64,000 nucleotides of DNA from Chiloscyllium plagiosum (GCF_004010195.1 NC_057718.1:97405644-97469643); one strand, 5' to 3'; positions 575 to 58,780 are shown, numbered from the stretch's first letter. Program-made: numbers and translations. Notes: generated from the sequence alone by a model not told the origin.

Positions 575-915
575 GAGTTAAAAATCACACAACACCAGGT
601 TTATTTGGAAGTACTAGCTTTCGGAGCACTGCTACTTCATCAGGTAGCTGTGGAACAGGATCATAAGACACAGAATTTATAACAAAAGATTACAGTGTCA
701 TGCAACTGAAATGATATATTGAACAAACCCAGATTGCTGTTAAGTCTTTCAGCTTTTAGAATGGGTTGCAGGTTTCAGTTCATTAATATGTAAATCCCAG
801 GTCTTCTTTTAAGTCACATTCTAGGGATAACTTAAGGTTTTATAAAAAAAAGTGACATCTCAGCTCAGACAATGCATTAAAGGTGTGAGTTTAGAGTCCA
901 ACTGTATCCCAGACA
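575..915 (-). mobile_element. Penelope-like element terminal fragment (GGAGC/GCTCC family)
   Basis: aaaaatcacacaacaccagg...tagctttcggagcactgctacttcatcagg is shared with copies at 53683-53867 and 58615-58780. Assigned to Penelope by the hammerhead motif, not by coding sequence. Confidence 0.6.
612..646 (-). ncRNA. Minimal type I hammerhead ribozyme motif
   Basis: Minus strand reads tac-CUGAUGA-A-GUAGC-agu-GCUCC-GAAA-GC-UA-gua: conserved core, helix II with one mismatch, palindromic AGCU helix III, 3-bp helix I. Confidence 0.55.
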
Positions 916-1164
916 TCTTTGCAACATTAAACATTCATTGTGGCTGCTGGTCCATTGTTTACCAACATTTCCTATAATTGTTCCTATCCAATCTTCCCTG
1001 CCATTGTGACAAAGGGCACAATCAAATCTAACTTCGCTCTGTGCGCAGGGGGACATGGGTAGCCTGGCTGATACATCTCTACCTGCTCAGAATTTTAGTG
1101 GTAACAGCCCTATCCCGGGTGAGTTCACCTACTTCAGCACCGAACATTGATCCAACCGCAATGT

Positions 1165-1330
1165 TTCTGAAAACAAAAAAAATGCTGGAGATCACAGCAT
1201 CTGTGGAGAGAGACCAAGCTAATGTTTCCAGTCTAAACTCGAAACATTAGCTTGCTTTCTCTCCATGGACGCTGTCTGACCTGCTGTGATTCAGTACAGA
1301 TTCCAGCATCTGTAGTAATTTGCTCCTACA
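1165..1330. mobile_element. Fold-back (inverted) Penelope-like terminal fragment
   Basis: gagagagaccaagctaatgtttc ... gaaacattagcttgctttctctc inverted arms; core deleted. Confidence 0.5.
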
Positions 1331-1966
1331 TTGTAGAATCTTCCTGATATTTGTGCCTAATTTTCTTGTAAAGAAAAATTATTACAGTAATTTATTATCA
1401 TATTTGCAGCATTGCTCTGATTCAACTGCACCTGTTATAATCATTACTTTGCCAGTTATTAGCTTTCGCTAATAAAGTTGTGTTTGTCTCCCTTAATATC
1501 TGCTAAGCTGTTGAACTTCAGAAACTGATTTAAGTGCCACCCTTAAATTTCTTCCTGGATAATAAATTCACTGAGCTTTATTCTGCTTTTTCAAAGCTAT
1601 ATTTGAATTATACTTTCAGATTTATTCTTCTCCTCTTTAAAATCAGAATGCTCCTTCCTTAGTGTCTAACCAGCTGAAAGTCTGGTGAAGGGCTTTTGCC
1701 CGAAACGTCGATTCTCCTGCTCCTCAGGTGCTGCCTGACCTGCTGTGCATTTCCAGCACTATACTCTCAACTCTCCCACCCTGCCCCCTGTAAAAACACG
1801 ATCCCATATTCCCAATTCCTTCGCCTCCGCCGCATCTGCTCCCAGGAGGACCAATTCCAATAACGAACAACCCAGATGGCCTCCTTCTTCAAAGACCGCA
1901 ATTTCCCCTCAGACGTGGTTGATGATGCTCTCCACCGCATCTCCTCCACTTCCTGCTCCTCCGTCC

Positions 1967-2364
1967 NNNNNNNNNNNNNNNNNNNNNNNNNNNNNNNNNN
2001 NNNNNNNNNNNNNNNNNNNNNNNNNNNNNNNNNNNNNNNNNNNNNNNNNNNNNNNNNNNNNNNNNNNNNNNNNNNNNNNNNNNNNNNNNNNNNNNNNNNN
2101 NNNNNNNNNNNNNNNNNNNNNNNNNNNNNNNNNNNNNNNNNNNNNNNNNNNNNNNNNNNNNNNNNNNNNNNNNNNNNNNNNNNNNNNNNNNNNNNNNNNN
2201 NNNNNNNNNNNNNNNNNNNNNNNNNNNNNNNNNNNNNNNNNNNNNNNNNNNNNNNNNNNNNNNNNNNNNNNNNNNNNNNNNNNNNNNNNNNNNNNNNNNN
2301 NNNNNNNNNNNNNNNNNNNNNNNNNNNNNNNNNNNNNNNNNNNNNNNNNNNNNNNNNNNNNNNN
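1967..2364. other. Assembly gap (N run)
   Basis: Run of n inside the Penelope-like element. Confidence 1.
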
Positions 2365-2520
2365 TTGACCTGCAATCTTCTTCCCGGCCTCTCCGCCCCC
2401 ACCCCCTCTCCGGCCTATTACCCTCACCTTAACCTCCTTCCACCCATCGCATTCCCAACGCCCCTCCCCCAAGTCCCTCCTCCCTACCTTTTATCTTAGC
2501 CTACTTGGCACACCATCCTC

Positions 2521-2556
2521 ATTCCTGAAGAAGGGCTTATGCCCGAAACGTCGATT
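2521..2556 (+). ncRNA. Minimal type I hammerhead ribozyme motif
   Basis: attc-CUGAAGA-A-GGGC-uuau-GCCC-GAAA-C-GUC-gatt: intact core, 4-bp helix II, palindromic ACGU, weak helix I. Confidence 0.6.
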
Positions 2557-4567
2557 CTCCTGCTCCTTGGATGCTGCCTGACCTGCTGCGCTTTTCCAGC
2601 AACATATTTTTCAGCTCTGATCTCCAGCATCTGCAGTCCTCACTTTCTCAACTCTATAGTCTGGTTGAGAACACAGTGTTTGGACAAACTCAAACTGGCG
2701 AGTGTGGAAGATGGAAAATTAGCCAGGGGAGTAGTTGAGTGTGGATATGACAGAAGTGTGGGTGAGATTTACCACAGTGGGTAGGTTGTATCGAGAGGTT
2801 GGGAATGGTACTGTATTGGAGAAATTATTCATTTCCTACACCATTTTAATTCATTTAAAAGCAGAATGGGACAATTATCACTCAACTTCCAGTGCTTTAT
2901 TTTCTCTGATGCATTTTTATTAACTATCATTTGTTCTCCAGTTGCAGTTTCACCCCCAGTTTGAAAACAAAAAAAGATGCAGTCATTTGGATCATGGAGA
3001 AAGCATGTTCAGATCATGCTGAGTTTCAGCATCAGACTTGTCGTCTGCTATTTATTTAGCCATATGTTTGGTTTTTAAACTATTTTTAAAAGCAAAAACT
3101 GCAATATTGTCATTTTTCCAAACTCTTGTAATTACCTACAATTATGTAGATAGATGTGTTGATGAACCAAATTAATCATGATTAATTTTAATCATGTTTT
3201 TCATTGGAAATTGTTTAATTTTTTTACAATGACTCCATGAAATATTTAGTGTTTTATATGAAACTTATTTATACAATTAGACATAATTGTGAGCATCGCA
3301 TGTTATCAATTATTTATAGTATTAGTTAAAAAGTAGCTTATTTTTGAACAAAACTGCTTATTCAACATAACAGGGGACGAGAGTGGATGAATAATTAATT
3401 CTGTTACATAATGATGTGGGTGAGAGCCACAGATTGAGTTATTGCTAAATGTGTTCGTGGGAACAGAGTGCCCGAAGGGAAACAAATCTATATATTTATG
3501 TATGTGCTGAGTTATTTTTATTTCTGTGCGTTCTTGAGCGCTGCCCACAGACTGCTATTAAATATAACACAGCTCCTTTAGCCTGGCATTCAATGCCTAT
3601 CTTCTGCACTCTGTGATTTTAGACACAATTGTCAGACACCTTGATTTTGTTTTTTGATTGGACAATCAGAATGGTTTCGGCAGAAGCAACTTTCGAAATG
3701 GAATTTAACCAGGGCAGTGATGAACCCTCTTTGAGCAGCTACCATGACTAATCCCACATCTCTCTGCCATGCAGTCAACAAGTAAGGCCATTGCTTTTTC
3801 AATGTTGACGCCCACCTCCTCTCCACACCACCACACCACCCCCCCCCCCCAACCCCCACCACCATTGCTGCATTCCAATCTTGAGTATTTCCCAACTCCA
3901 ACCCTCATCCCCAGTGAGCTCCGTTACCTTGCTCAGAATTGAGCACATAGTGCAAAGCACCAATTGCAATCCAGGTTCCCAGCTGCTTGGAATCCTCACA
4001 GCCAACAGCCTGACAGGAGGCCATTGTACCTGTGCCATTGCTTGTTCCCACTCACTCCCTCTTGTAATCCTGTGTCTTTGTCATCCTAAAGTGCCTAACC
4101 AACTCCCTGTCAACATTATTTGTGGAACCAGTTTCCATCACTTTTTCAGAAGATCTTGACAACTCAGGAGTGTGTTAAAATGTTAGATTAATTAGCATTG
4201 TTAAATGCATAAACTTATAATTTTCATGGTTAAACAAAGACATATCCTGGTTAAACCACTCTCCCATTTCTTCTGGTGGTTTGTACATCACATCTCACTA
4301 TGTTAAATGTGTTCACATTAAACGCTTTTGATTTCTCAATGTTAAATGTAGCAGCTTGTCCTGATATAGTTTTTTTTTATTAAATGTTGCTGTCATGTAT
4401 TCATGGTTTTGTATTAGGTGTTAACAGCATCTCATTTGCCATGAATCCTTCTGCCCTAAATCACCAGAAGTAACAGAGATAATTTATAAGAATACAATTT
4501 TGGATAGGATTGAGGAAGTACAAAATAAGCACCCAAAGAGACAAACCATTCAGAAAATAATAACAGA

Positions 4568-6470: not shown

Positions 6471-6619
6471 AGATTGTTTGGATGGCATTCTTGGCTAAAC
6501 CTCAGTGGAAAATTCTTCAATTCTTTCCAAGTAACGCAGGCACCAAGGATGCACCAAGGAATGAATTAGCATACATTTCCTGTCTGCATTATTTTAACAG
6601 AACACTGCAAATTCACACT

Positions 6620-6815
6620 AAAAACCGAAAAACAGCAGATGCTGCAAATCAGAAACAAAAAGGAGTAATTGCTGGAAAAAGCTCAGCAGGTCTGGCAGCA
6701 TCTGTGGAGAGAAATCAGAGTTAATGTTTCCAGTCTGAGGAAGGGTTACCAGACCTGAATCATTTGCTTGGATTTCTCTTCACAGATGCTGCCAGACCTA
6801 CTGAGCTTTTACTTG
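6620..6815. mobile_element. Fold-back Penelope-like terminal fragment
   Basis: gctcagcaggtctggcagcatctgtggagagaaatc ... gatttctcttcacagatgctgccagacctactgagc inverted arms around a degenerate ctgaggaagggttaccagacctgaa core. Confidence 0.65.
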
Positions 6816-8479: not shown

Positions 8480-9760
8480 CTCACCACAGCACCAGGGACC
8501 CAGGTTCAATTCCAGCCTCAGGTGACTATCTGTGTAGTGTTTGAACATTCTCCCCGTGTCTGCGTGGATTTCCTCCGGATGCTCCGGTTTTCTCCCACTG
8601 TGCAAAAATGTGCAGGTTAGGGTGGATTGGCCATGCCAAATTACACCATACTGTCCAAGGATGTGCAGGTTAGGGTGGATTGGCCATGCCAAATTACCCC
8701 ATATTGTCCAAGGATGTGCAGGTTAGGGTGGATTGGCCATGCCAAATTTTCTCCCACTGTGCAAAAATGTGTAGGTTAGGGTGGATTGGCCATGCCAAAT
8801 TACCCCATACTGTCCAAGGATGTGCAGGTTAGGTGGATTGGCCATGCCAAATTACCCCATACTATCCAAGGATGTGCAGGTTAGGTGGATTGGCCATGCC
8901 AAATTACCCCATACTGTCCAAGGATGTGCAGGTTAGGGTGGATTGGCCATGCCAAATTACCCCATACTGTCCAAGGATGTGCAGGTTAGGTGGATTGGCC
9001 TGCCAAATATTACCCCATACTGTCCAAGGATGTGCAGGTTAGAGTGGATTGGCCATGCCAAATTACCCCATACTGTCCAAGGATGTGCAGGTTAGGTGGA
9101 TTGGCCATGCCAAATTACCCCATACTGTCCAAAGATGTGCAGGTTAGGGTGGATTGGCCATGCCGTATTACCCCATACTGTCCAAGGATGTGCAGGTTAG
9201 GGTGGATTGGCCATGCCAAATTACCCCATATTGTCCAAGGATGTGCAGGTTAGGGTGGATTGGCCATGCCAAATTACCCCATACTGTCCAAGGATGTGCA
9301 GGTCAGGTGGATTGGCCATGCCAAATTACCCCATACTGTCCAAGGATGTGCAGGTCATGTGGATTGGCCATGCCAAATTACCCCATACTGTCCAAGGATG
9401 TGCAGGTTAGGTTGGATTGGCCATGCCAAATTACCCCATACTGTCCAAGGATGCGCAGGTCAGATGGATTGGTCATGCCAAATTACCCCATACTGTCCAA
9501 GGATGTGCAGGTTAGGGTGGATTGGCCATGCCAAATTACCCCATACTGTCCAAGGATGTGCAGGTTAGGTGGATTGGCCATGCCAAAATACCCCATACAG
9601 TCCAAGGATGTGCAGGTTAGCTGGGTTAGCCATGGGAAATGCAGGATTACATGGATAGAGTAGGGGCGGGGTCTGGGTGGGATACTGTTCCGAGGGACGG
9701 TGTGGACTCAGTGGGCTGAATGGCCTGCTTCCACCATTCTAGGATTCTGTGATTCTGTTC
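8480..9760 (+). mobile_element. HE1-type V-SINE with an expanded internal tandem array
   Basis: tRNA-like head (ggttcaattcc), V-domain ttctccccgtgtctgcgtggatttcctccggatgctccgg, tandem array, then CR1-like tail gggctgaatggcctgcttcc...gattctgtgattctg. Confidence 0.9.
8608..9640 (+). repeat. Minisatellite, about 20 copies of a 52-53 bp unit
   Basis: Unit atgtgcaggttag(g)gtggattggccatgccaaattaccccatactgtccaagg repeated head to tail. Confidence 0.95.
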
Positions 9761-10124
9761 TATAATATGAATGACAAAATCTTGGATCATGAGGCTCTTG
9801 TGATATTGTCCCCCCTCTGGACCAAAGGGATTCAAGTTCCACCTGCCTTATAGCTGTGTCTGAATAGATCAATTGTACGAACTATAATGAATCGGGATAG
9901 GAATATTTTCTTACAACAGTGTTATCCAACAGGAGAGTGGTTACAGTGACGCCAGTTTAGTTGCATACATGTATTAGGTTGAAAATGCCTCATTTATACT
10001 GAACATCATCCACAAAAAATGCAGAATAATATTAAAGTGTACATATGAATGACATGGAAAGTCAAATCACAACCCCGCCCTTCTTGTTAAGTTTTTATTT
10101 TTAAATTAAACTATTGTTCTGATC

Positions 10125-10340
10125 AGAGTCAAGATTAGAGTGGTGCTAGAAAAGCACAGCAGGTCAGGCAGCATTCGAGGAGCAGTACAATCGATGTTTC
10201 GGGCAAAAGCCCTTCATCAGGAAATGATGAAGGGCTTTTGCCCAAAACGTCGATTTTCCTGCTCCTCAGATGCTGCAGGGCCTGCTTTGCTTTTTCAGCA
10301 CCACTCTGATCTTCACCATCTGATGTCCTCACTTTAGCCT
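10125..10340. mobile_element. Fold-back Penelope-like terminal repeat pair
   Basis: About 90-bp inverted arms centred near 10221: ...cgggcaaaagcccttcatca-ggaaa-tgatgaagggcttttgccc... Confidence 0.8.
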
Positions 10341-10444
10341 ATTTTTCTGATCAACCTGTTCAGAGATGTTGTTATCCACTTCTGGAGCAGGTGGGACTTG
10401 AACCCAGGTTTCTCGGTCCAGAGGTAGGGTTCATGTTATCCACG

Positions 10445-10721
10445 AGGCCTCCTCTATATTGGGGAGACGGGCCGCCTACTTGCGGAGGAGGTCAGGCAGC
10501 ATCTAGGGAACAGGAGAATCGACGTCTCTGGCATTAGCCCTTCTTCAGGAATGAGGAAAGTTGGTCCAGCAGGCTAAGATAAAAGATAGGGAATATGGAA
10601 TATCTTAGTCTGCTGGACCAACTTTCCTCATTCCTGAAGGAGGGCTAATGCCCGAAACGTCGATTCTCCTGTTCCCTAGATGCTGCCTGACCTGCTGCGC
10701 TTTTCCAGCAACACATTTCCA
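10445..10721. mobile_element. Penelope-like mini-insertion: GIY-YIG fragment plus inverted terminal pair, 14-bp TSD
   Basis: tcatgttatccacg at 10431-10444 and 10722-10735. 10446-10487 encodes GLLYIGETGRLLAE (YIG motif). About 100-bp inverted arms follow. Confidence 0.9.
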
Positions 10722-15587: not shown

Positions 15588-15861
15588 AGTCATAGAGATG
15601 TACAGCACGGAAACAGACCCTTCGGTCCAACCTGTCCATGCTGACCAGATATCCCAACCCAATCTAGTCCCACCTGCCAGCACCCGGCCCCTATCCCTCC
15701 AAACCCCTCCTATTCATATACCCATCCAAATGCCTCATAAATGTTGCAATTGTACTAGCCTCCACCACTTCCTCTGGCAGCTCATTCCATACCTGTACCA
15801 ACCTCTGTGTGAAATAATTGCCCTTTAGGTCTCTTTTATATCTTTCCCCTCTCACCCTAAA
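15588..15861 (-). mobile_element. CR1/HER1 3' end, first half of a split copy (continues at 17958-18020)
   Basis: Reverse complement of the 3' UTR at 17684-17957. The sequence ctcaccctaaa|(c)ctatgccctctagttctgg is split across the two pieces. Confidence 0.9.
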
Positions 15862-15998
15862 TGCAGGTAAAGGGACGGCTGGAATATGGGAAGCCTTCAG
15901 AAATGAGATAACAAGAATTCAGAGAAAGTATATTCCTGCCAGGGTGAAAGGGAAGGCTGGTAGGTATAGGGAATGCTGGATGACAAAAGAAATTGAGG

Positions 15999-16204
15999 TG
16001 AAAATGTGTTGCTGGAATAGCGCAGCAGGTCAGGCAGCATCCAGGGAACAGGAGAATCGACGTTTCGGGCATAAGCCCTTCTTCAGGTGCTTATGTCCGA
16101 AACGTCGATTCTCCTGTTCCCTGGATGCTGCCTGACCTGCTGCGCTTTTCCAGCAACACATTTTCAGCTCTGATCGCCAGCATCTGCAGACCTCACTTTC
16201 TTCC
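15999..16204. mobile_element. Fold-back Penelope-like mini-insertion inside CR1, 15-bp TSD
   Basis: caaaagaaattgagg at 15984-15998 and 16205-16219. Inverted arms; intact hammerhead core on the - strand at 16059-16086. Confidence 0.9.
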
Positions 16205-18194: not shown

Positions 18195-18318
18195 CAGAGA
18201 AAGTGAGGGCTGCAGATGCTGAAGATCAGAGAGACGAAAAGTGTTGCGCTGGAAAAGCACAGCAGCATCCGAGAGGCAGGGGAGTCAATGTGTCGGGCAT
18301 AAGTCCTTCCTCAGGAAC
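18195..18318 (-). mobile_element. Penelope-like terminal fragment
   Basis: gaaagtgagggctgcagatgctg...ctggaaaagcacagcagc...cgggcataagtccttcctcagg is the reverse complement of the 2520-2650 terminus. Confidence 0.7.
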
Positions 18319-28859: not shown

Positions 28860-30800
28860 GTCACGAGCTCAAATAGAATTGGCAACTCAATATTCCTAGT
28901 TGCAGGGTATTCAGAAGAGATAGAGAGAACGATTGAGTCATCAATTGAGGATATCTTGGAAGGGTGTGTACTATAGGCTCCCAAACAGTCACAGAGAGTC
29001 AAAAGGTCAAATATGTCATCAAATTTCGGAGAAGTGTAAGAATATTAAGGAAGCAGTAGTAGAGGACTTTGCCCAAATATTAACTGGGATTGTTTTAGTG
29101 TATAGGGTAAAGAGAAAACAAAATCTTTAACTTTCATCCAGGAGAAAACTTTTGAGAAAGTCCAACAAGGAAGGGGGTCAGATGCAGACCTAACATTTGA
29201 CAGTGAGTCCTGGGCAGGTCAAAGGCATTTTAGTAGGAAAGCATTTTGGGAATAGTGACCATAACTTAGTTAGATTTAGAATAGCTATAGAAAATGATGG
29301 GTTGGGAGTAAGAGTCCTGTCTTGAGGAAAGGCAGGTTTTTATGAAGAAAAGGTACAATTTGGCCCAATGGACTGTCTCTTGTATGCAGTCACTTGCAGA
29401 TAAAATGGTGTCAGAGTGACAGGAAGCATTCAAGGAGGAACTAGCAAAGGTACACAGCAGATATATTCCAGTGAAGGCAAAGGATGGGACCAATACCAGA
29501 CAATCCTGGATGTTAAAGGTCACAGAGGTTAGGATTAGGTGAAAAAGAAGCTTATGTCAGATACTGAGGTGTCCACATGGCCAGGCCCTGGGAGGAAGTT
29601 ACAAAGAAATCAGAAAAGCAAAGAGAACGCATGAGAACGCATTGGTGGCTAAAATCAAGGAAAAGCCAAAAGGTGTGGTGCTGGAAAAGCACAGCAGGTC
29701 AGGCAGCATCCTAGGAGCAAAAGAATCAACATTTCGGGCATAAGCCCTTCATCAGGAATGTGGGGGCATTGGGGGCTGGGAGATAAATGGGAGTTGGGGT
29801 CGGGCTGGGGGTAATGTAGGTGGGATGGTGATAGGTAGATGCAGTGGGGCATGATTGTCATTGGTCGGGTGGGAGGATGGAGCGGATAGGTGGGATGGAA
29901 GATGGACAGTTCAAGAGGGCGATATCCGGTTGGAGGGTTGGATCTGGGATGAGGTGGGGGGAGGGGAAATGAGGAAACAGGTGAAGTCAACATTGAGGCC
30001 GTGTGGTTGGAGGGTCCCAAGGATTTTATTTAATATATAAAGAACAAGAGAATAATGAGGGAATGAATAGATCCCATTAAGGACCATGAAGATAATCAGT
30101 GTGTGTTCCAGGAAAATATGGGCATATCTTCAGTTCACATTTTTTTTTATAATGGAATAGGATGACACAGGTATGAATATCAGAGTGGAACTCTCTAAAA
30201 TATTAGAAGAAATTAACAGGGAGAGAGGAGATCCTAGGGGGTACAAGTGTTAGGAACTTGGAAAGGACTCAAGATCGGAGAGATCCTGGTTGAATAGCTA
30301 TAGATCCCTGGAGGTAATGGGGCAGGTAGATAAGGCAGGTCAGAAGGCATACAGGATATTTGCCTTTATTAGCTGAAGCATAGAATACAAGAGCAACAGA
30401 GAGGGTGCAGAGGAGATTCACCATGATGTTGAGTGGGCTGGAGGGCTATGAGGATAGATTGGAGAACCTGACGTTGTTTTCCTTAGCCTAGTGAAGGTAG
30501 AGACGCAACCCGACAGAGGTGTGTAGGATTATAAAAGGCATTGATAGGGCGGATAGGAAGGCGTTTTTTCTGTTATTAGAGGGGTCACTAACTGGGGGCA
30601 TAGATTTAAGGGAAGGGGTATAAAGTTAAGAGGAGAGTCAAGGAGAAATGTATTCACCCAGACGCTGGTGGGAGTTGGAACTTACTGCCTGAAAGGGCAA
30701 TTGAGTCAGGAACTCACAGAACATGAAATCATTATTTACATGTTCACTTTCATTGCCATATCGGCAGGGACTTTGGTCTGAACGCTAGACATTGGGATCA
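28860..30800 (+). mobile_element. Old, heavily deleted CR1 LINE (endonuclease to 3' end)
   Basis: gtgtactataggctcccaaacag (YRPP-like), gggaatagtgaccataac (GNSDHN), gagggtgcagaggagattcaccatgatg (QRRFTMM), ggggcatagatttaag. Confidence 0.7.
29672..30022 (-). mobile_element. Penelope-like 3' fragment inserted in the old CR1
   Basis: Minus strand encodes LGTLQPHGLNVDF (GIY-YIG C-terminus), followed by the terminal repeat with cctgatgaagggcttatgcccgaaatgtt. Confidence 0.85.
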
Positions 30801-32514: not shown

Positions 32515-33031
32515 GGTAAAAAACCAAACCGCTCAGTGGCTCAACATTTCAACTCCCCCTCCCACTCTGCCGAGGATATGGAGGTGCTGGGCCTCCTCCA
32601 CCGCCGCTCCCTCACCACCAGACGCCTGGAGGAAGAACGCCTCATCTTCCGCCTCGGAACACTTCAACCCCAGGGCATCAATGTGGACTTCAACAGTTTA
32701 CTCATTTCCCCTTCCCCCACCTCATCCTAGCTTCTAACCTCCAGCAACTCGATCCCCTGACCTGTCCGGACTTGTCCGACCTGCCCAGCTCCTTTTCCAC
32801 CTATCCACTCCACCCTCTCCTCCCTGACCTATCACCTTCATCTCCTTCCCCACTGACCTATTGTACTCTATGCCACTCTCTCCCCACCCCCACCCTCCTC
32901 TAGCTTATCTCTCCACGCTTCAGGCTCTCTGCCTTTATTCCTGATGAAGGGCTTTTGCCCGAAACGTCGATTTTGCCTGTCCTCGGATGCTGCCTGAATT
33001 GCTGTGCTCTTCCAACACCACTGATCCAGAA
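32515..33031 (+). mobile_element. 5'-truncated Penelope-like element, 14-bp TSD
   Basis: tgtgctgtaaataa at 32501-32514 and 33032-33045. ORF 32536..32730 AQHFNSPSH...RRLEEERLIFRLGTLQPQGINVDF is a GIY-YIG C-terminus. Confidence 0.92.
32937..32972 (+). ncRNA. Minimal type I hammerhead ribozyme motif
   Basis: attc-CUGAUGA-A-GGGC-uuuu-GCCC-GAAA-C-GUC-gatt; predicted cleavage after 32968. Confidence 0.65.
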
Positions 33032-37934: not shown

Positions 37935-38030
37935 CTGTTGAGAGTGTGGTGCTGGAAAAGCACTGCAGGTCAGGCAGCATCAGAGGAGTAGGAGAATCGA
38001 CGTTTCGGGCATCTTGATAAAGGGCTTTTT
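37935..38030 (-). mobile_element. Penelope-like terminal fragment with short fold-back
   Basis: gtggtgctggaaaagcactgcaggtcaggcagc...gaatcgacgtttcgggc-atct-tgataaagggctttt. Confidence 0.75.
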
Positions 38031-44277: not shown

Positions 44278-46947
44278 TGAACTAAGTCTACCAAGTCCAG
44301 TATCCCTGTATGTACACATGGAGAGTCCTTGATTCTGATACAGCTCCTACAGTGACGAGAACCTCTGACACCCCAGGTTATATCTGTCAGCCAGGGCTCC
44401 CTGTTTGGGGCTGTTAATCTGGTCCAATCAGGGAACTCATATTCTGTGACGTCCACCTGGCTGACCTTGTTAAAAATCACTGCACCCCTTCCCCTCTGAG
44501 TCCAAGGATGTAGGCGCAGTTCTTTTTTTTTAGTTGTCCCTCCCCGGGGCATTTTAGCACTGGGTCAGGTTCCTCAGATTCTGTCTCAGATAGAGGCAGT
44601 GTGTAACACACCGTAGCTCATCTCTTGTGCCCGGAGTGTTTCAGAAGAAATTCATTCTCTTCAGTCATCGAAGCATTGTCAGGCACCACGCCCATCACAA
44701 ATTGCGAGATATCCTCAATGCCTGACAGAGAGAGGGAACCCATGGGTCCCAGAACAGCTGTCGATGAGCTGAGCATGTTTTGCTCCCTCGCTTGGCTTGT
44801 GAGTTTGCAGCTTTCATATGCTCCATGCGCTTGTTCAGGACCATCACTGAACTTTACACATCACTGGATCCAACCTCGTGTCAACCATGTCCCTTACCCC
44901 CCATTCTCATAGTTCCTACACAAGACTTTGTCCTCTGAAGTTAACTGTCTCTCTCGCTGGTGTCCGGCATTGGTGTTTCTGATGCTGTTTCACCCCCCAC
45001 CCCCCCCCCCCCCCCCGAGACCTGCGACTCATCTCCCCAGTAGCGACTCTGCTAGAGCTATCCCTGTGGTTGCATGGGGGGGGGGCGGTCCTATAACGAA
45101 ATAGGAATCAGAAAGTTTGGTATCTAGTAAAGCTGCAGGCTGTTTCTTTAAACCTGCCTTCAAAGTTTGGACTGCTCTTTCTGCCAGGCCATTGGATGAT
45201 GGATGGAGTACAGCTGTCCTTATGTGTTGAATACCATTCGACTTCAGGAAATACTCAAGTTCCCTGCTGGTAAACAATGGCCCATTATATGTGACCAACA
45301 CTAATGGGAGTCAGTGTATTGCAAAAGACACAGGCGGCTTTTTGATCATCATCTCGTGTTTGACAAATGAACTCTCTGCATGTCCAGCCACTTTGAGTGG
45401 GCGGCCAATGACTAAGAACATTGACCCCATGAAAGGACTGGCATAGTCGATGTGTTACCGAGTCCAGGGTTTACCCAGCCATTCCAACAAATGTGGGGGA
45501 GATGCTGGCATTAATTTTTGTCCTTGTTTGCACTCTGGGCACTGCCCCATGAATGTGGCTGTTGGCATCCAATCCTGGCCACCAGACAACATCCTCACTT
45601 TGGAAATCCCTTGCTGTCCCTGGTGGAGGTGACCCACCATCTGGTGGTGACCTTTGCTCGGGACCCATCCCTCTTGCTCCCTGTAATAATACGCCATCCT
45701 CGACGGTGATCTGGTCTCTCCGGGTCTGAAAAGGTTTCAGTTCTGGCTGTGACCGCCCTTTGGTTTCCCCCATCACCACCCAGTGTTCCAGTTTTACCAG
45801 GACTGGATATTTCTGCATCCCCAAAGTCTGATGTAGTCAGCTGTGACTGGAAGTGTGCCCTGAAAATTTAAAACCCTAATGGTCTCTTCCAGTGGTGGCA
45901 CCACCGGTGTGGGCCTGCCAGTGGGAGGCGGCTCAATGTATCTGCATTTCTTCTTGGCCTCCCAGACAGTATACAGGCAGCAGCTGCAATGGCTTGCCAG
46001 TCCTGATCTTGAAGGAAACTTTAACCATTTGGCCAAGGCTTGGCTTTGTTTTCAGGTTTTGCTGTGGGCTGACCTGGAGTCCCTCTGATCAGGATATGTC
46101 CTGAGTGAGGCTTTTGTTAAAGTGGTGTTCCCCAAGCTCAGTTGGACTGGTGAGGGTATCCACTTCCGTTGGAATACCCTGTAGTTCTTATGCTCCAGTT
46201 GTTGCATTTTCTATTGGTAGAGCCTGTTTGAAGTGCAGTTGGGCTTCAGCTGGTAGCTGCTTTTGCATGGTTATATCATTAATCACATGTACCAAATGGT
46301 CTCTCAGCATCTCATTAAGGGTGAAACCAAAGTCACATACCTCTTCCTGTTGTCTTAACCCAGTCAAAAATCCCAATACGGATTCCCCAGTTCTTGAATT
46401 GCCGGATAAAAATGACAACGTCTCAGAATTAGGGGAGGCTTAGGGTCGTAATACTCCTTAACTAAATCTGTCAACCCTTGAAAGGTTTTGGTATCTGGTG
46501 CCTCAGGGAAAGTTAGGCTCCTAATAGCCAAAAAAGCTGCAGGTCCACAAGTTGTCAGGAGAATTACTCGAAGCTTTTCATCTGCCCCGATGTCATTTGC
46601 CCGGACAAAATAATACAGTCTTTCCATATGCTGGGGTCAGTCTTTGACAGCAGAATCAAATGAGTCAAGCTTCCCAAGTAATTGTATGATGCCAGAAATC
46701 CTTACCTCAATTCAAAGATGATTCTTGCAACCAGATTTCTTCTGGATCATGCTATTCTCTCACCATCACTGAAATCACCCCACAAAGGCTGGTATTCATC
46801 ACCAAGTCACCTTTTATTTACATGGAGAGTCCTCGACACTAATCCAGCTCCTCAGAGCCAACTCACATGTGAACCAGATTAACAGCCCCAGTCAGGGAAC
46901 TCCTATTCTGTGAGGTCTACCTGGCTGACCTCATTACAATCACGACA
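44278..46947 (-). mobile_element. Internally deleted Gypsy/Ty3 LTR retrotransposon (LTR-gag-integrase-PPT-LTR)
   Basis: LTRs at 46770-46947 and 44278-44484 (TG...CA); PPT at 44485-44497. gag ORFs 46364..46627 and 46188..46418 (ERLYYF...LRDHLV); integrase ORFs 45471..45824, 45455..45697 and 45029..45301 (WWPGLD, CPEC, NGPLFTS, HPSSNGLAERAVQTLK). Frameshifted. Confidence 0.92.
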
Positions 46948-47850: not shown

Positions 47851-49291
47851 CTGGCCCATGGTTGTTGTGGAAGGGCTTCAGGACTCTGAAGCAGTCTTGT
47901 GGTGATGTCATGGAGCTGCTCCTCACTGGGCGTAAGTAACACAGGGTGGGCGGAGTTAAGAAAGAGCAGTGGAAAGAGAGAAACGTGGAACAGACCAATT
48001 AACATTAGGCGGTAGATATTTTTTGGAATTGTCTTTCATTGAATGGCTGTGAGATTATAGACTGGTATAAATCTGAATACCATGTGTTGCAGTATTTAGT
48101 CTCCATACTTAATGAACAGATTTACAAGAAGCGCATGCCAAAAGATTGCTCCTGACCTTACTCTCTGCTCAAGCAGTCTGTCTTGGATGTGGATATAAAA
48201 CCGTACAGTAAACAAATGGTAACTTCCCAAGAACATGAATTCTCCTGCACTCAAATAGTTAGCTCTTCAGAAGATGAGGGGAGAAAATTGGATGGAAAAT
48301 ACAGCCTAAAATTCATATAACTTTGATGGAAGACCATAATACCTCTCAAGAATAGCCTTTGATCTTGGCCAGACATGTGGGGAAGAGTGAGAGAGGAGTC
48401 GCATTTAAAGTTACCAGAAAAATGCATTGAGATAAAATGTAGTTTATTTTATTGTAAACAGTGAGACTGCTTGTTTATTATAATTGGAGAGAGACAAATG
48501 ACTGATTATACATTTGCTGAGTTGTTCGATCTTTAGAAAGGCTGTTAACCCAGAGAGCCAATAACCATCCTCCTGGCACTAAAATCAAAACAAACATGCT
48601 GGAAACACTCAGGAGGCCAGGCAGTATCTGAGAGAAAAGAGGGAATAAATGTTTGTCTGGATCATCCTTTCAAACTGATGAACAGCATGTATGAAGGAAC
48701 AGAACAAAGGGACAGAGGCACATATCCATACAAGCACATATCTGCAAAATACTTTTGTGGGAAGCGGGGAGAGTTCAACAGTTCAGGTTATGTTACCTTG
48801 ACTGATAACACAGGAAAGCACCTCAATTTCAGTTTAAACACACTTCGGTGGTTTGCTTTTAAGTATTGACTTTAATAGTTTTATAACTGCAATTTTCTCT
48901 TCAACAGGAAGCGTTGATGATGTGGGAAAGATGGCTACCTGTGGAAATTCTTTTGTGGGGTGGTGGGGAGTCAGGATGTAATGCCTGGGCAAGAACCATA
49001 TGTTGGGGGTGAAACCTACTTCTGCATCTCTCAGGAGACACTTTGCCACCGGACCCTGCTCAATTCCATCTTTGTTTTTGCCCTGCATTTCTACATGTCC
49101 CTGCATTCCCCCCCCCCCCACCATAATTATGTCAGCCATTCACACACCCTTCACTTTCTCCTATCATCTCATACAAATAACACTTATGCTACCCAACCAC
49201 TTAACCATCCCTGCTCTTCACTTAATACCCAAGGTGTTGGAGACTGAAGGGTCTACCCCAAATTCAATGGCAGCCTTCCTGAACACTCTTT

Positions 49292-49720
49292 GGGACGGTA
49301 CAGTGGCTCAGTGGTTAGAACTGCTGTCTCGCAGCACCAATGATCCAGGTTCGATTCCAGCCTCGGGTGACTGTGTGGAGTTTGCACATTCTCCCCGTGG
49401 TCTGCGTGGGTTTCCTCCCACAGTCCAAAGATGTCCAGGTTAGGTGGATTGGCCTTGCTAACTTGCCCCATAGTGTTCAGGGATGTGTAGGTTAGGTGCA
49501 TTAATCACGGGTGGGTTACTCTTCTGAGGCAGAAGTAGGTACTGGAGATTAGAGTCAAGATTAGAATGGTGCTGGAAAAGTACAGCACGTCAGGCAGCAT
49601 CCAAAGAGCAGGAAAATCGATGTTTCAGGCAAAAGCTTTACTCTTCTGAGAGTCAGTGTTGATTTGTTGGGCTGAAGGGCCTGTTTCCACACTCTAGGGA
49701 TTCCATGATTCCATTCTATG
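49292..49720 (+). mobile_element. HE1-type V-SINE containing a Penelope-like fragment (49529-49637, 13-bp TSD)
   Basis: ttactcttctgag at 49516-49528 and 49638-49650 flanks a minus-strand Penelope terminus. Confidence 0.88.
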
Positions 49721-50893: not shown

Positions 50894-50973
50894 GAATGGA
50901 CTGATGCATTATTCAGCCTGGCAACTAACCTGTTAGCACAGAACAGATCAAGGGACACTCTGTTGCACAAAGT
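50894..50973 (+). CDS. PLCB1: Phospholipase C beta 1 coding exon (human exon 5 equivalent), PH C-terminal helix / linker
   Basis: Acceptor ctcccctgtttgtgtattccag, donor GT|gtaagt, 80 nt, phase 0-2. Translates [26 protein letters not shown](V), versus recalled human [26 protein letters not shown](A). Forms the tail of ORF 50714..50977. Confidence 0.95.
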
Positions 50974-51978
50974 GTAAGTTTTGATCACTGTCCTTTTTGT
51001 TCTATTGCTTATGTTTAACTGGTTTCAGTATTTCCTGAAACACTGACAACATCGCAACTGTAAACTTGCTGTAACTTTGTTCCGACAAGTGAATCAGTAC
51101 CGTGGGATTCAGAACTATCATCTCATGGACTGAATTCAGTATTGTAGAATTTGCCCTTGTGTGACAGCAAGAAGCATGTTGAAGGCCTGTACACTTCTGC
51201 TTTTCATTGACTTCAAGTTCGCCAATTTGCTGCCTTCCTTTCCTCAATTAGTGGCTGCTAGCTTCCTTTGACTGTGACTGCAATTAGGCTTTACCATCAG
51301 TACAATGAGGCCTAACTTGAATTGAATCATATACAAACCAAAAGAACACCGCATGTGCTGTAAATCAGAAACAAAAACAGAAATTGCTGGAAAAGCTCAG
51401 CAGGTCTGGCAGCATCCGTGGAGAGAAATCAGAGTTAGTGTTTCATGTCCATTGAGTTGAATTAGCTTTATTGTCACATGTACTCAAATGAGTGCAGTGA
51501 AAAGTTTACAAGTTACCACTTACAGCACCATACAATTACTGGAATACTTTGGAGGTCTGGCTAATTTGGACATTTGAAAGACAAGGCATTTTCCCCAGGG
51601 TGGGGGAGTCCAAAACTGGAGGACATAGGTTTAAGGTGAGAGGGGAAAGATTTAAAAGGGACTAGTGAGATTCCACAGGGTTCAGCTCTCAGGCCCTAAC
51701 TATTTACAATCCCTATTCATTATTTCTATGTTGGTAAGGTATGATATTCAGTCCCTTGCGCAGGAAAACCTAGAATCAGGGGATGTAGAGTCAGTATGGA
51801 TAGACCTGAGAAATTCTAAGGGTAAAAAGACCCTCATGGGAGTTATCTAGGCCCCCAAACAGTAGTCTGGATATAGGGTGTAAGTTGAATAAGGAGCTGA
51901 AATTGGCCTGTCGCAAAGATATTACTACAGTTGTTATGGGGGATTTCAACATGCAGGTAGACTGGGAGAATCAGGATG

Positions 51979-52899
51979 NNNNNNNNNNNNNNNNNNNNNN
52001 NNNNNNNNNNNNNNNNNNNNNNNNNNNNNNNNNNNNNNNNNNNNNNNNNNNNNNNNNNNNNNNNNNNNNNNNNNNNNNNNNNNNNNNNNNNNNNNNNNNN
52101 NNNNNNNNNNNNNNNNNNNNNNNNNNNNNNNNNNNNNNNNNNNNNNNNNNNNNNNNNNNNNNNNNNNNNNNNNNNNNNNNNNNNNNNNNNNNNNNNNNNN
52201 NNNNNNNNNNNNNNNNNNNNNNNNNNNNNNNNNNNNNNNNNNNNNNNNNNNNNNNNNNNNNNNNNNNNNNNNNNNNNNNNNNNNNNNNNNNNNNNNNNNN
52301 NNNNNNNNNNNNNNNNNNNNNNNNNNNNNNNNNNNNNNNNNNNNNNNNNNNNNNNNNNNNNNNNNNNNNNNNNNNNNNNNNNNNNNNNNNNNNNNNNNNN
52401 NNNNNNNNNNNNNNNNNNNNNNNNNNNNNNNNNNNNNNNNNNNNNNNNNNNNNNNNNNNNNNNNNNNNNNNNNNNNNNNNNNNNNNNNNNNNNNNNNNNN
52501 NNNNNNNNNNNNNNNNNNNNNNNNNNNNNNNNNNNNNNNNNNNNNNNNNNNNNNNNNNNNNNNNNNNNNNNNNNNNNNNNNNNNNNNNNNNNNNNNNNNN
52601 NNNNNNNNNNNNNNNNNNNNNNNNNNNNNNNNNNNNNNNNNNNNNNNNNNNNNNNNNNNNNNNNNNNNNNNNNNNNNNNNNNNNNNNNNNNNNNNNNNNN
52701 NNNNNNNNNNNNNNNNNNNNNNNNNNNNNNNNNNNNNNNNNNNNNNNNNNNNNNNNNNNNNNNNNNNNNNNNNNNNNNNNNNNNNNNNNNNNNNNNNNNN
52801 NNNNNNNNNNNNNNNNNNNNNNNNNNNNNNNNNNNNNNNNNNNNNNNNNNNNNNNNNNNNNNNNNNNNNNNNNNNNNNNNNNNNNNNNNNNNNNNNNNN
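51979..52899. other. Assembly gap (N run)
   Basis: Run of n inside CR1 ORF2. Confidence 1.
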
Positions 52900-53682
52900 T
52901 AATCTTCTGGAATTTTTTGAGGATGTAACTCTGAAGATGGACAAGGGAGATCCAGTGGATGTAGTGTACCTGGACTTTCAGAAAGCTTTTGATAAAGTCC
53001 CACATAGGAGATTAGTGAGCAAAATTAGGGCGCATGGTATTGGGGGAAAAATACTGACTTGGAAAGAAAGTTTGTTGGCTGATAGGAAACAAAGAGTAGT
53101 GATAAACAGCTCCATTTCGGAATGGCAGGCAGTGACCAGTGGGGTACCGCAGGGATCAGTGCTGGGACCGCAGCTTTTTACAATGTACATTAATGATATA
53201 GAAGATGGTATTAAAAGTAGTATTAGCAAATTTGCTGATGATACAATGCTGGGTGGCAGGGTGAAATGTGAGGAAGATATTAGGAGATTACAGGGTGACC
53301 TGGACAGGCTAGGTGAGCGGACAGATGCATGGCAGATGCAGTTTAATGTGGATAAATGTATGGTTATCCACTTTGGTGGCAAGAACAGGAAGGCAGCTTG
53401 CTACCTAAATGGAGTCAAATTAGGTAAAGGGGCAGTACAACGAGATCTAGGTGTTCTTGTACATCAGTCAATGAAAGCAAGCATGCAGGTACAGCAGGCA
53501 GTGAAGAAAGCTAATAGCGTGCTGGCCTTCATAACAAGAGCAATTGGGTGTAGAAGCAAAGAGGTTCTTCTGCAGTTGTATAGGGCCCTGGTGAGACCGC
53601 ACCTGGAATATTTTGTGCAGTTTTGGTCTCCAAATTTGAGGAAAGACATTCTGGCTATTGAGGGAGTGTAGCGTAGGTTCAC

Positions 53683-53867
53683 GTCCAACAGGATTAATTA
53701 GAAGCACACTAGCTTTCGGACCGATGCTCCTTCATCAGGTGACAGTCGATAGGAGCGTCGCTCCGAAAGCTAGTGTGCTTCCAATTAAACCTGTTGGACT
53801 ATTACCTGGTGTTGTGTGATTTTTAACTTTGTACACCCCAGTCCAACACCGGCATCTCCAAATCATG
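53683..53867. mobile_element. Fold-back Penelope-like insertion (GGAGC/GCTCC family) inside CR1
   Basis: Inverted arms 53683-53731 and 53751-53799. Hammerhead core on the - strand at 53707-53741: cac-CUGAUGA-A-GGAGC-auc-GGUCC-GAAA-GC-UA-gug. Confidence 0.8.
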
Positions 53868-54240
53868 AGTTTAGAAGGCTGAGAGGGGATCTGATTGAGA
53901 TATATCAGATTATGAAAGGATTGGACACTCTGGAGGCAGGAAGCATGTTTCCGCTGACGGGTGAGTCCCGAACCAGAGGGCACAGTTTAAAAATAAAGGA
54001 TAGGCCATTTAGAACAGAGATGAGGAGAAACTTCTTCACCCAGAGAGTGGTGGCTGTATGGAATGCTCTGCCCCAGAGGGCTCTGGAGGCCAAGTCTCTC
54101 GATACTTTCAAGAAAGAGTTGGATAGAGCTCTTAAGGATAGTGGAATCAAGGATTATGGGGATAAGGCAGGAACAGGATACTGATTGAGGATGATCAGCC
54201 ATGATCATATTGAATGGTGGTGCAGGCTCGAAGGGCAGAT

Positions 54241-55455: not shown

Positions 55456-57344
55456 AAACTGTAGTTTGATCAGACTGGCAGACAGGAAGGTTAGGCTTGA
55501 CAAAGACAACCTTATTAAGAGACTCACTGTAAATTTATAATGACTATAGAATAATAAGGAGCAATTTACAGAACTTCTGAATGAATCCTTGATTCCAAAT
55601 CACTGCCAAACAAATGCAGGTAAAGGTAAGCAAAATCAATATGCTTGCGTTACAGTCATGTTAAGATCATAGTTTATGACTCAAAGTATTTCTGATGGCT
55701 CTGGATAAGAGTAGACAGGGCAGCCAGGAACAATGTCTGACTTTTCAAGACGAGGATATTTGAATCAGTGCAATCCTTCATAAAGTTTTCCCTTTAGGAA
55801 GAAGAAACAGATTCTGCCACTTGGCTGGGAAGTTGGATATCGTAAGCGCAAAACCTACAAGGAGGCAGGATCAGTGTTGTCTAACACAGACTAAACCTCC
55901 CCAAAACTTGGGGCTGCTGGATTCCTGTAAATTTACCTGCTTCTGCCTTTCTTCTCATCCGACTTGCAAAGTAATGATCTTAACTGCATCGCACATCAGG
56001 GGACATTGTAAAACCTGACCCGTAACTAAATAACAAACCCTTTGATTGGAGTGAGAAAATTGATATGTCAGTCTGTGTTGTCGAATCAAGCAGTACAGAA
56101 GAGGCCTATCAAGTCTGTACTGCCAAAAACACACCAAATTTACAGGAGTCCCACTTTCCAGCACCTATTAAGAGAATTCAAGTGCTCATTCTCGCATTTT
56201 CTCAAGGTTGCAAGGTTACCCGCCTCCCAGACAGTGCATTCCAAACCCCTACCAGTCTCTGGGTGAAAAGACTTTGTCTCAAGTCCCTTCTAAACCCTGT
56301 ATTCCCCTCTGCCTTGCCTTATGTAGTGTTGTCACACATATTAGGTTTGCAAGGTGACGTTAAAAACAATTGCCCCTACTCTGTACAGTCTGGACGAGCT
56401 TTTGCCAGCCTGCATTTGTTGAACCTTTCCCAGCGATACCTACGACAGCTGCACTACAGGAGTCACCGTGGAGCAATAGTTTAGAACACTGATTGATATT
56501 GCAATCCCATCAGAGGTTCTAGATGCTGATTAATAAATTGAGTCTTGCCAAGGCACAAGGCAATTGACATTGACAGGTATAATTAGCCCTGTTTATAGAC
56601 TGCTGTGAAAATATTTGATTCGAATTTGAAAGAAAAATAAGTGGAATGAAAATATTGTGAGATATGTGTCACTCAAGCTCTTAGTGTGTGTGGGACTCCT
56701 GTGGTGGGAACAACGATGATAAATTCAGCACTTACATTGTATTTTTGTTAGCGCACTTCATATTTGGCAACACTGCATTTGCAAATGCATTCAATTCCGA
56801 ATCGAACCAGCTATGCCCTTAATAAATCTCCGACCTCGACCATATTTTTTCTGAAATAAACTCCTATTAATTTTTCAGGCCAATTGCCAATTTGCTGTCC
56901 TCTAAATGGCTCGAATGCTCCAGTCACCTCTGGATCACTATCATAACTGGTTACCTACTTCCTCCATAGTATCACATTAAATGAAATTCCTACTGTTGTT
57001 TAGTCCCATTCAACCCACAGTTAGCTTCTGCTTGATGAGACTGCTGAAGTGTACCAGCCAACAATTCTTTACTGGCATAACCTGCTCTTGATTTCCTATG
57101 TGCCTCATTTTTAATCTGAAAGGGACCTTGGGGACATCATTCAGCGTCACCAAACAATGGAAGGCGCATTGGGTTCCACACTCGATCATGGAAATGCTGC
57201 ACTAATTATACATGAACTTCCACATACGTTGCATGAGAGATGCAAACGCAAGATGCTGAATGCATCCAAAGCACGTGTGGGATAGGAATTACAGAGCTCA
57301 CCATTTGGTAGCACAGAGTTGAGCACAGCTGAAGAAGTCACAGT

Positions 57345-57380
57345 TTGTCAAAGCTTTTTGTCTTGAACTCGTCAGGACAA
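57345..57380 (-). ncRNA. Decayed minimal hammerhead motif in a fold-back repeat (57340-57490)
   Basis: uuguc-CUGACGA-GU-ucaag-AC-aAAA-AGCUUu-gacaa: 5-bp helix I, palindromic AAGCUU; the GAAA core G is mutated to A. Confidence 0.45.
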
Positions 57381-57544
57381 TTTGCAACAATATCAATTCA
57401 AGGAGAAACGTAACATTTATACTGCATGACAGGAGAGTGTTTTAGTGTCGGGTTTCCCTTGAATTGGTATTGTTGCAAATTGCTTCATTGAAAAGATTTA
57501 GCAGGGTGTTGCTTGAAATGGAGGGTTTGTGATCTAGAAATAGC

Positions 57545-57950
57545 CTGAAAAAACTGGGACTTTCTTCACTGGAACACATGAGATTGAGGGTCACCTTTTT
57601 GAGGCTTATAAAATGATGATGGGCGTAGATAAACTGAATGACTAGGACTTTTTCCTGAGGGTGGGGAATTCAAAACGAGGGGGCTTATTTTTAAGGTGAG
57701 TGGAGAGAGAGTTAAAAAGGACATGAGGGACAATGTTTTTACACAGAGTGTGGTTTGTGTGTGGAATGAACTGCCAGAGAAAGTGATGGATGCAGGTACG
57801 GTTAAAAAACACTTGGGTAAGTTCATGAATAGGAAAGGTTTGGAGCGATATGGGCCAAGCGCACGCAGGTGGGACAAATCTAGTTTGGGATTATGTTTGA
57901 TGCGGACTGGTTGGACCGAAGGGTCTGGTTTCCCTGCTGTCGGATTCTAT
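57545..57950 (+). mobile_element. CR1 3' fragment
   Basis: ORF 57696..58031 FTQSVVCVWNELPEKV and HER1-type 3' UTR. Confidence 0.88.
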
Positions 57951-58614
57951 AAGTGCGGAATGACAAGCTTTGACAAATGTATTATTAAATGTGTCTTTAT
58001 TTCAGCAACTCTCAAATTGAGGAGTTATTAGGCATGTGATAATATGCTGAAAATGTGTCACTCTTTCAATGTTAAAGGCAGATGTTGATTGTATATTAGC
58101 TTAGAATGTGTAGTCAGTGCTTCTATTCATTTTGGGTATCTTAATCTGATGCAGAAATGCTCATGTATTCCCTGATAATGTAAGAATCTAGGATGTGGGT
58201 AATGTGGTATTGAACAATCCAGCAGCCTTTCCTTACAGCTCCTTAATATATGCAAATATTATATTCTCAAATATCTGGGGCAACATTCAGCCATTCACTT
58301 AGAAAGAAGAGAACGCTTTCATCAGCATGTCATGCTTCAAGAGGCCCAAGTAAGGATGGAGTCTGAGGCTTGTATACCCTCAGGTCACATGCTGTGATGT
58401 AGTGGTAATATCATCAACATGTCTTGGAAAGGGATAGTGACATGTTGGTCATGTGACCATAGCACAACGGAGCAGTTCTTACCATTTGCCTCACTTCAAG
58501 CTATCGACAAAAAGGAAATGCTGTTTTTTGAGTGCCAAATTACTCTAATATCCAATACCCAACGAGTATGGTGCCCCTACAGGGTGTCTGTGAGCAATTA
58601 CAACAATCTTCAGT

Positions 58615-58780
58615 CAAAGTCGGAAGTCACACAACACCAGGTTATAGTCCAACAGGTTTATTTAAAATCACGAGCTTTCGGAGCGCCGCTCCTTCATCAG
58701 GGGAAGTGGAGGGAGGTGCACAGGCACAGACTATGTGGAATATTTTCAATTCCAGTCCAACACCGGCATCTCCACATCAA
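58615..58780 (-). mobile_element. Penelope-like terminal fragment with hammerhead core at 58669-58703
   Basis: Minus strand CUGAUGA-A-GGAGC-ggc-GCUCC-GAAA-GC-UC with a perfect 5-bp helix II. Confidence 0.7.

Follow-up and report, generated by a model that had tools for sequence, protein, structure and literature searches.

Hammerhead motifs in the introns of a shark PLCB1 gene

The stretch of DNA analysed here (the window) comprises 64,000 nt of the genome of the bamboo shark Chiloscyllium plagiosum, of which 62,100 are called bases, with three assembly gaps. It covers part of the PLCB1 gene, which lies on the plus strand and is represented by three coding exons (Table 1); the product of one of them was identical in 47 of 47 residues to a protein named PLCB1 from Chiloscyllium punctatum (P0006). 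Scattered between the exons are many copies of a minimal type I hammerhead ribozyme motif, every one of them intronic. These motifs are very probably the 3′ pseudo-long-terminal-repeat (pLTR) ends of several endonuclease-positive lineages of Penelope-like elements (PLEs), each with its own minimal hammerhead.

An earlier note on this DNA had placed three hammerhead families (A, B and C) and a degenerate fourth type (here D) in introns of PLCB1, likening them to PLE hammerheads with a palindromic helix III. The intron setting was confirmed and this reading supported, the sequences described were present at all the named sites, and they fit the published pattern NNN CUGANGAH G..C GAAAN Palind NU H NNN. 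The minus-strand motifs had been quoted by their low coordinate, C3 lying higher. A full core (CUGANGA-N-helix II-GAAA-palindrome-UH) was found in six copies, three of family A (C3 at 2525+, 32941+ and 16086−) and three of family B (C3 at 643−, 53738− and 58700−). Not all the stems of these copies are complete: helix I is reduced to 1 bp in 16086 and in 58700 (broken at pair 2 in the latter), and helix II carries a U-C mismatch in 643 and a G-G mismatch in 53738.

The note had proposed a descriptor scan of the window. A strict hammerhead descriptor gave three matches when helix I had to be at least 2 bp long and helix II free of mismatches, four when one mismatch was allowed, and six when helix I was not demanded; dinucleotide shuffles gave 0, 0 and 1 match in 300, respectively. 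A descriptor tolerating one core mismatch gave six matches, including the family C motif at 57375−, and none in 200 shuffles. Since the descriptors were composed after the sites were known, and copies of one family are not independent, the fair reading of these counts is three independent families against a near-zero background. Cataloguing by blast and alignment yielded 13 copies of family A, four of B, one of C plus an inverted half without core, and up to nine of D, some of the D-like copies being weak. This amounts to ∼27 element ends, or one per 2.3 kb, and adds ∼14 hammerhead remnants to those noted earlier. The six full cores in 62.1 kb correspond to ∼100 per Mb (Poisson range roughly 35–210, from one window).

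Table 1. Hammerhead copies, Penelope-like coding fragments and PLCB1 exons in the window (RT, reverse transcriptase; UTR, untranslated region; TSD, target-site duplication; LINE, long interspersed nuclear element)
Feature	Position	Strand	Remarks
Family A partial-tandem PLE insertion	1687..2657	+	Truncated pLTR, RT-thumb fragment, 3′ UTR, pLTR with tail
Family A hammerhead remnant	1682..1709	+	Target DNA in place of 5′ core; helix II and GAAACGUC substrate half retained
PLE RT C-terminal (thumb) fragment	1774..1941	+	80% identical to P0001/P0003 (E 3e-22); one stop
Family A hammerhead, intact core	2523..2554	+	C3 2525, C17 2552; 2-bp helix I, 4-bp helix II; same sense as PLCB1
Family A fold-back insertion	10121..10335	both	Minus copy with broken palindrome (C3 10220); plus copy tailed, G12>A
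GIY-YIG endonuclease fragment	10446..10505	+	LYIGET motif; 85% identical to P0001 in 20 aa (E 4e-05)
Family A fold-back insertion	10482..10718	both	Minus copy A14>G; plus copy at 10634 A9>G
Family A fold-back insertion inside LINE	16001..16201	both	Plus copy truncated, with tail; 15-bp TSD
Family A solo pLTR end, decayed	18197..18317	−	A14>C; with tail; blast/alignment
Family A 3′ end	29676..30022	−	Endonuclease C-terminus 30021-29956, 3′ UTR, hammerhead C3 29755 with CpG-decayed helix III
Family A 3′ end	32515..33031	+	Endonuclease C-terminus 32521-32706, 3′ UTR, pLTR; 14-bp TSD
Family A hammerhead, intact core	32939..32970	+	C3 32941, C17 32968; sense to PLCB1
Family A solo copy	37946..38012	−	Truncated within helix II; blast/alignment
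Family A solo copy	49542..49636	−	Truncated at helix II; 13-bp TSD
Family B hammerhead	612..646	−	C3 643, A17 615; helix I uac/gua; element end to ∼576
Family B fold-back insertion	53675..53865	both	Minus full core C3 53738, A17 53710, helix I cac/gug
Family B insertion	58615..58779	both	Minus copy C3 58700, C17 58672; tail-only plus fragment 58752-58779
Family C hammerhead remnant	57345..57380	−	C3 57375, U17 57350; helix I 5 bp, helix II GU/AC, palindrome AAGCUU; N9.1 absent; G12>A
Family C upstream sequence and inverted partner ending before core	57378..57482	both	73% identity over 109 nt
Family D remnant	364..480	+	Three core changes; C3 equivalent 369
Family D fold-back insertion	6619..6810	both	Plus copy C3 6735, A15.1>U; 9-bp direct repeat in flanks
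Family D fold-back remnant	1195..1290	both	Both copies truncated in helix II
Family D solo copy	51332..51449	−	Truncated in helix II; blast/alignment
Weaker D-like remnant	30910-30991	+	blast/alignment
Weaker D-like remnant	38815-38869	−	blast/alignment
Weaker D-like remnant	48587-48637	−	blast/alignment
PLCB1 coding exon, aa 83-129 of P0006	36564..36704	+	PH domain; Pfam PH_14 E 1.5e-13; AG/GT borders
PLCB1 coding exon, aa 130-156	50894..50973	+	tblastn, exact peptides, AG/GT borders
PLCB1 coding exon, aa 157-174	63521..63574	+	Match to P0006, AG/GT borders

Family A lies at the 3′ end of Penelope-like coding sequence

Family A has the palindrome ACGU, a helix I of 2 bp, a helix II of 4–5 bp, an extra base between A9 and 10.1, and a G10.1-C11.1 pair. 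The reading frame at 32515-32727 retrieved proteins with RT and GIY-YIG domains named from Chiloscyllium, the Pfam scores being under the curated cut-offs. The retrieved proteins mapped back to the four coding fragments of Table 1, each joined to a family A copy. Family A is a Penelope-like element whose pLTR end lies 3′ of the RT/GIY-YIG open reading frame (ORF), and its proposed tie to Penelope coding sequence stands. A Cys linker resembling a zinc finger separates RT and endonuclease in the homologues P0001 and P0003 (73–85% identical to the window fragments) and in a metagenome contig described below (L002). Such a linker marks the Neptune and Nematis elements (PMC8557442). The linker that would place family A near these two groups comes from the homologues; the fragments in the window do not span it.

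The partial tandem at 1687-2657 is bracketed by an 8-bp target-site duplication (1679-1686 and 2658-2665) and includes an assembly gap (1967-2364). Its upstream hammerhead, near 1682, had been listed as decayed. A remnant is indeed present, but it is 5′-truncated rather than point-mutated, and its first five bases fall within the target-site duplication. The minus copy of the fold-back at 16001-16201 has its C17 at 16059. At 10434-10505, a short plus-strand GIY-YIG fragment is fused straight to the minus-strand pLTR of a fold-back insertion, with an overlap at the junction.

Family B and two metagenome contigs

Family B has the palindrome AGCU, a helix I of 3 bp, an extra base after A9, and the G10.1-C11.1 pair. 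In the fold-back at 53675-53865 the plus copy is truncated, starting at 53751, and the tail (53838-53865) is present on this one copy only; the insertion at 58615-58779 has the same arrangement, which is known from PLE insertions. The 25 fixed bases of the motif were found in two metagenome contigs, L001 and L002; the pattern had no match in the viral contigs searched. In L002 a same-strand GIY-YIG-like ORF (33% to the family A endonuclease; E 1.3e-13 to P0001) lies ∼790 nt upstream of the motif, and in L001 a B-type 3′ end is joined to an inverted RT fragment (40%, E 2e-17). The difference in helix I pointed out earlier, uac/gua at 612 and cac/gug at 53707, was found as described. L002 reads cac/gug plus two more pairs, giving 5 bp, and since it shares cac/gug the change still counts as one event.

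The identification of family B as a PLE pLTR end is supported, and its link to GIY-YIG would run through L002 and L001 rather than through the shark copies. The Penelope origin suggested for families B and C has thereby been strengthened for B, by the coding link in L002 and by the fold-back with its one-sided tail, while for C it is still inferred. The two contigs, of marine metagenome origin (L001 1-1050, L002 1-1470), carry the same young PLE 3′ end (99.6% identity across 677 nt), in each case accompanied by a truncated partner in inverted orientation. Their B-type hammerhead is intact with its 5-bp helix I, making it a better assay candidate than the shark copies.

Families C and D

The motif at 57345 on the minus strand has the GU/AC helix II and the AAGCUU palindrome that had been attributed to family C, but its core is not intact, as an A occupies the position of G12, the general base (PMC6155905). 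The G10.1-C11.1 pair is present, the extra base after A9 is absent, and helix II is 2 bp long. Relatives were sought by matching a 251-nt stretch against two DNA runs, in which 904 and 794 contigs were placed; contig depth was not taken as copy number. Depth was greatest over 57351-57386, and the best supported of the 3′-side loose ends listed fell at 57340-57345, the end of the 5-bp helix I. The depth peak and the loose ends at the motif edge suggest that the relatives of family C, which number hundreds and come from two organisms, share mainly the motif itself, and the sequence beside it diverges among the contigs placed. A fall in depth upstream of the core was considered as a sign of 5′ truncation and rejected, the loose ends there resembling diverged upstream sequence.

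The relatives have U at N7 in 89% and 87% of depth in the two runs, and mostly G in loop II. C11.1>U accounts for 36% and 40% of depth; together with G12>A, it would represent the two faces of a decayed CpG. A second organism also has the family C insertion, with 14 differences across 250 nt. On this stretch, two raw RNA runs yielded 9 and 0 reads and no pile-up of ends, too few to test expression or cleavage. A helix II of 2 bp can support cleavage in engineered hammerheads. Variants with a small palindromic helix III have been described (PMC4209133). That family C is a natural hammerhead both real and undescribed, abundant and combining a helix I of 5 bp and a 6-nt palindrome with a helix II of 2 bp and no N9.1, is a tentative proposal to which we give somewhat less than even chances.

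The fourth type, described as degenerate near 370 and 6735, was recognized at both sites, with three core changes at the former and A15.1 lost at the latter. Family D has the extra base after A9, the G10.1-C11.1 pair and a helix II of 4–5 bp, and its 3′ tail is common to family A. The minus copy of the insertion at 6619-6810 is truncated and has a longer 3′ end. The sequence following the cut site in family D resembles a 3′ splice site (a pyrimidine tract and CAG), followed by an ATG that opens the tail shared with A. This was seen at 6700-6730 (−), 1241-1270, 30910-30935 and 51420-51445 (−), and several family A copies also have AG there. The stretch could mark the end of a 5′ intron and the start of the ORF in the parent PLE.

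Structure of the insertions

Families A, B and D include fold-back pairs with a tail at one end; family C shows an inverted partner only. Direct repeats of 8–15 bp flank six of the 14 insertions tested. Copy lengths vary by 5′ truncation and are not unit-sized. Eight of the 13 family A copies start at most ∼5 nt upstream of C3 or within the motif, and none at the cut site, in a count where fold-back partners are not independent. The family B copy at 53751 and four D copies also begin in helix II. The fold-backs of A, B and D fold at −94 to −195 kcal/mol with the motif buried. Four of the six full cores are antisense to PLCB1, two of these in fold-backs of −100 and −161 kcal/mol; the cores at 2525 and 32941, 30 kb apart, are the only ones in an intact motif that is both in sense orientation and free of a fold-back.

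Differences between families and among copies

The families differ in their stems at both sides of several pairs. Pair 15.2-16.2 is C-G in A, G-C in B and A-U in C; 10.2-11.2 is G-C or, in C, U-A; 10.3-11.3 is G-C or, in B, A-U; 10.4-11.4 is C-G, G-C or U-A; and 2.2-1.2 is U-A or A-U. These two-sided changes at five positions are a hand count on three or four lineages, from which a MAFFT cross-family alignment was excluded because it placed B out of register. The catalytic positions were all kept between families whose helices differ.

The expectation that the core would be more conserved than its flank across copies failed to reach significance: outside CpG, 4/111 core positions and 46/546 positions of the 3′ flank were changed among the 13 family A copies (p=0.11). 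Decay is faster at CpG than at non-CpG sites in these copies. Since copies decay after insertion and the signal lies between families, the comparison of core and flank across copies is the wrong test. Judged from these alignments, selection appears to act between families rather than among inserted copies. That several PLE lineages have redrawn their stems independently argues for selection to maintain the ribozyme in the parent elements.

Comparison with published systems

The minimal PLE hammerheads of Cervera and De la Pena (2014; PMC4209133) have the same type I topology, with CUGANGA and an extra base, the G10.1-C11.1 pair and GAAA, the same palindromic 15.2/16.2 positions, short helix I and pLTR location; there, as here, several families occur per genome, mostly as single truncated copies. 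Family A is close to the Acropora Neptune motif in Fig. S3 of that paper, whose 56 motifs include none from a chondrichthyan. The density in the shark window is far above the 4,000 and 9,000 motifs per genome given for coelacanth and Xenopus, and helix II, 2 bp long in C and 4–5 bp long in the other families, differs from that set. Already in 2014 the class had been described, together with its architecture and its scattering as single truncated copies. Of remaining interest, judging from one window, are the very high density, the 2-bp helix II of family C, and the sense tandem at 1687-2657 as a candidate cis-dimer. Literature searches, in which subscription papers were mostly not covered, found no paper on shark PLE hammerheads.

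Neptune-type, endonuclease-positive PLE units (Craig et al. 2021; PMC8557442) show the same 5′ truncation, partial tandems and adjacent inverted truncated copy, the same 30–40 bp tail at one end, and RT followed by a C-terminal GIY-YIG domain with a Cys linker, as in the close homologues found here. They differ in that the window holds no full-length element, and the clade is assigned here from the linker motif in homologues, not from a tree. The Poseidon element of Anolis, PAc (Frangieh et al. 2024; PMC11167929), has the same minimal pLTR hammerhead, an optional tail, and copies made from uncut RNA. It belongs to another clade, and its cleavage was measured, whereas the shark copies are known from sequence alone. 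Its hammerhead cut only with the element protein; the tail indicates two start sites for RT.

Non-LTR retrozymes (Li et al. 2026; bioRxiv 10.64898/2026.07.22.740005) share the type I hammerhead and a PLE pLTR ancestry, and one chondrichthyan is among their hosts. They form head-to-tail arrays without coding sequence, whereas the shark copies are dispersed, folded back or joined to PLE coding fragments; the sole tandem in the window (1682/2525) contains RT sequence and a truncated core, which does not fit a retrozyme. The intronic hammerheads of amniotes (RECK and others; PMC6155905) are likewise of type I and lie in introns, but they have the canonical form and are conserved between species at a single locus, while those of the shark are minimal, repetitive and decaying.

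Proposed origin of the copies

In the parent elements, two pLTR copies on a tandem transcript would pair through their palindromes (ACGU, AGCU or AAGCUU) and so form the missing helix III. By analogy with the published PLE hammerheads, the paired motifs would cut slowly after H17, probably with the help of the element's protein. Minimal PLE hammerheads showed no cleavage as monomers and weak cleavage as dimers (PMC4209133), a review concurs that cleavage occurs in dimers at low rates (PMC6765202), and one of nine Xenopus dimers cut (bioRxiv 10.64898/2026.07.22.740005). Reverse transcription of an uncut template, begun near the tail, would often halt in or just before the hammerhead; the starts of family A copies around the motif, with none at the cut site, match such a template. 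Short copies would thereby be scattered into the PLCB1 introns, with the target-site duplications and fold-back partners observed, and the inserted copies then decayed, chiefly at CpG.

Most copies would be unable to cut PLCB1 pre-mRNA, being antisense, broken, single or locked in a hairpin. The core at 2525 and the substrate half at 1682, 843 nt upstream, would make the one plausible cis pair, across an assembly gap. The genome measures a few gigabases, and ∼100 cores per Mb would then give some 10^5, extrapolating from one window. It is very unlikely, in our judgement, that shark introns hold ∼10^5 intact minimal hammerheads and that sense partial tandems like 1687-2657 cut host pre-mRNA when a PLE protein is present; if so, an active PLE lineage would be a genome-wide switch on nascent transcripts. 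The finding tells little about PLCB1 itself. It extends the hammerhead class of 2014 to bamboo sharks, and the density of copies makes the genome a source of large alignments, 5′-end statistics and strand-bias tests on the function of PLE hammerheads.

Alternative explanations

Several observations count against assigning all the families to PLE lineages with working hammerheads. The Rfam hammerhead models had no match in the window, and none at E≤10 for 2525, 57375 or L002. No coding link for B, C or D was found in the window by tblastn with five PLE proteins, the C and D copies being too short to reach an ORF. ViennaRNA favoured a double-hammerhead or active fold for no copy, a result given little weight since the program ignores the tertiary contacts of the core. 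The similarity of L002 to shark family B spans 53 nt only, making L002 a related lineage rather than the shark element. Pfam assigned no family to the L002 ORF, the GIY-YIG cut-off being passed only by P0005, a relative with 54% identity to it; a protein search with the L002 endonuclease returned two unnamed proteins and no named shark protein. Family C, with its 2-bp helix II and no N9.1, falls outside the >80% consensus of Fig. S3 in PMC4209133, and G12 is in the minority, at 25% and 32% of depth, in the contigs matched to an A12 copy. Contig placement favours copies like the A12 one, so that an ancestral G12 in family C is putative.

The missing coding link for C and D, and the divergence beside the C motif, would also suit non-autonomous retrozyme- or SINE-like elements (SINE, short interspersed nuclear element) that borrow PLE enzymes, an origin for C and perhaps B or D. 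Animal retrozymes have been reported as non-autonomous PLE derivatives in one chondrichthyan genome (bioRxiv 10.64898/2026.07.22.740005). Against this, no head-to-tail array was seen for any family among 20 of 33 repeat families listed, D shares its tail with A, the B motif ends a coding element in L002, and lengths vary by 5′ truncation; we regard such an origin as unlikely, though deserving some weight. A different reading would keep the motif for its RNA structure, as a protein-binding site or a barrier to reverse transcription, with cleavage lost in these lineages. The Anolis element needs its protein for cleavage, can insert in vitro without cleavage, and leaves no read ends in RNA-seq (PMC11167929); eight of nine Xenopus dimers stayed uncut; family A has a helix I of just 2 bp; and copies begin around the motif instead of at the cut site. 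All the catalytic positions were nevertheless kept between families with different helices, and the Anolis motif does cut, with a C3-G8 rescue (PMC11167929), so that a purely structural role seems decidedly unlikely.

That one or more copies are domesticated ribozymes regulating PLCB1 pre-mRNA, like the conserved intronic hammerheads of amniotes (PMC6155905), would draw on the intact sense cores at 2525 and 32941, and on the substrate half at 1682, which could pair with 2525 in cis. These two cores are, however, ordinary members of a 13-copy family with target-site duplications and no significant excess of core conservation; they miss the long helix I of canonical motifs, an assembly gap lies within the tandem, and the full cores show no strand bias (two sense, four antisense, p=0.69). 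Domestication is accordingly highly improbable. Chance matches to a short motif, a worry raised by descriptors composed after the sites were seen, can be set aside as next to impossible: they are ruled out by the shuffles and the family structure, three families sharing the core with compensating pairs, and the position at element ends agrees with the literature (PMC4209133).

Other repeats in the window

LINE RT remnants lie at 15860-17100, 51800-54200 and 59700-61050, with Pfam RVT_1 matches at 16734 and 59699; such remnants host the inserted fold-backs of family A (16001-16201) and family B (53675-53865). A broken LTR-retrotransposon pol remnant occupies 44600-46700 on the minus strand, with an integrase core match (Pfam rve_3, E 7e-4). 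A tandem array of ∼20 units of 52–53 bp, derived from a SINE-like repeat, extends over 8556-9656, and a shorter array over 43038-43333. Finally, an 84-nt repeat belonging to none of the assigned families is present in two copies of 88% identity, at 21199-21282 and 24412-24495.

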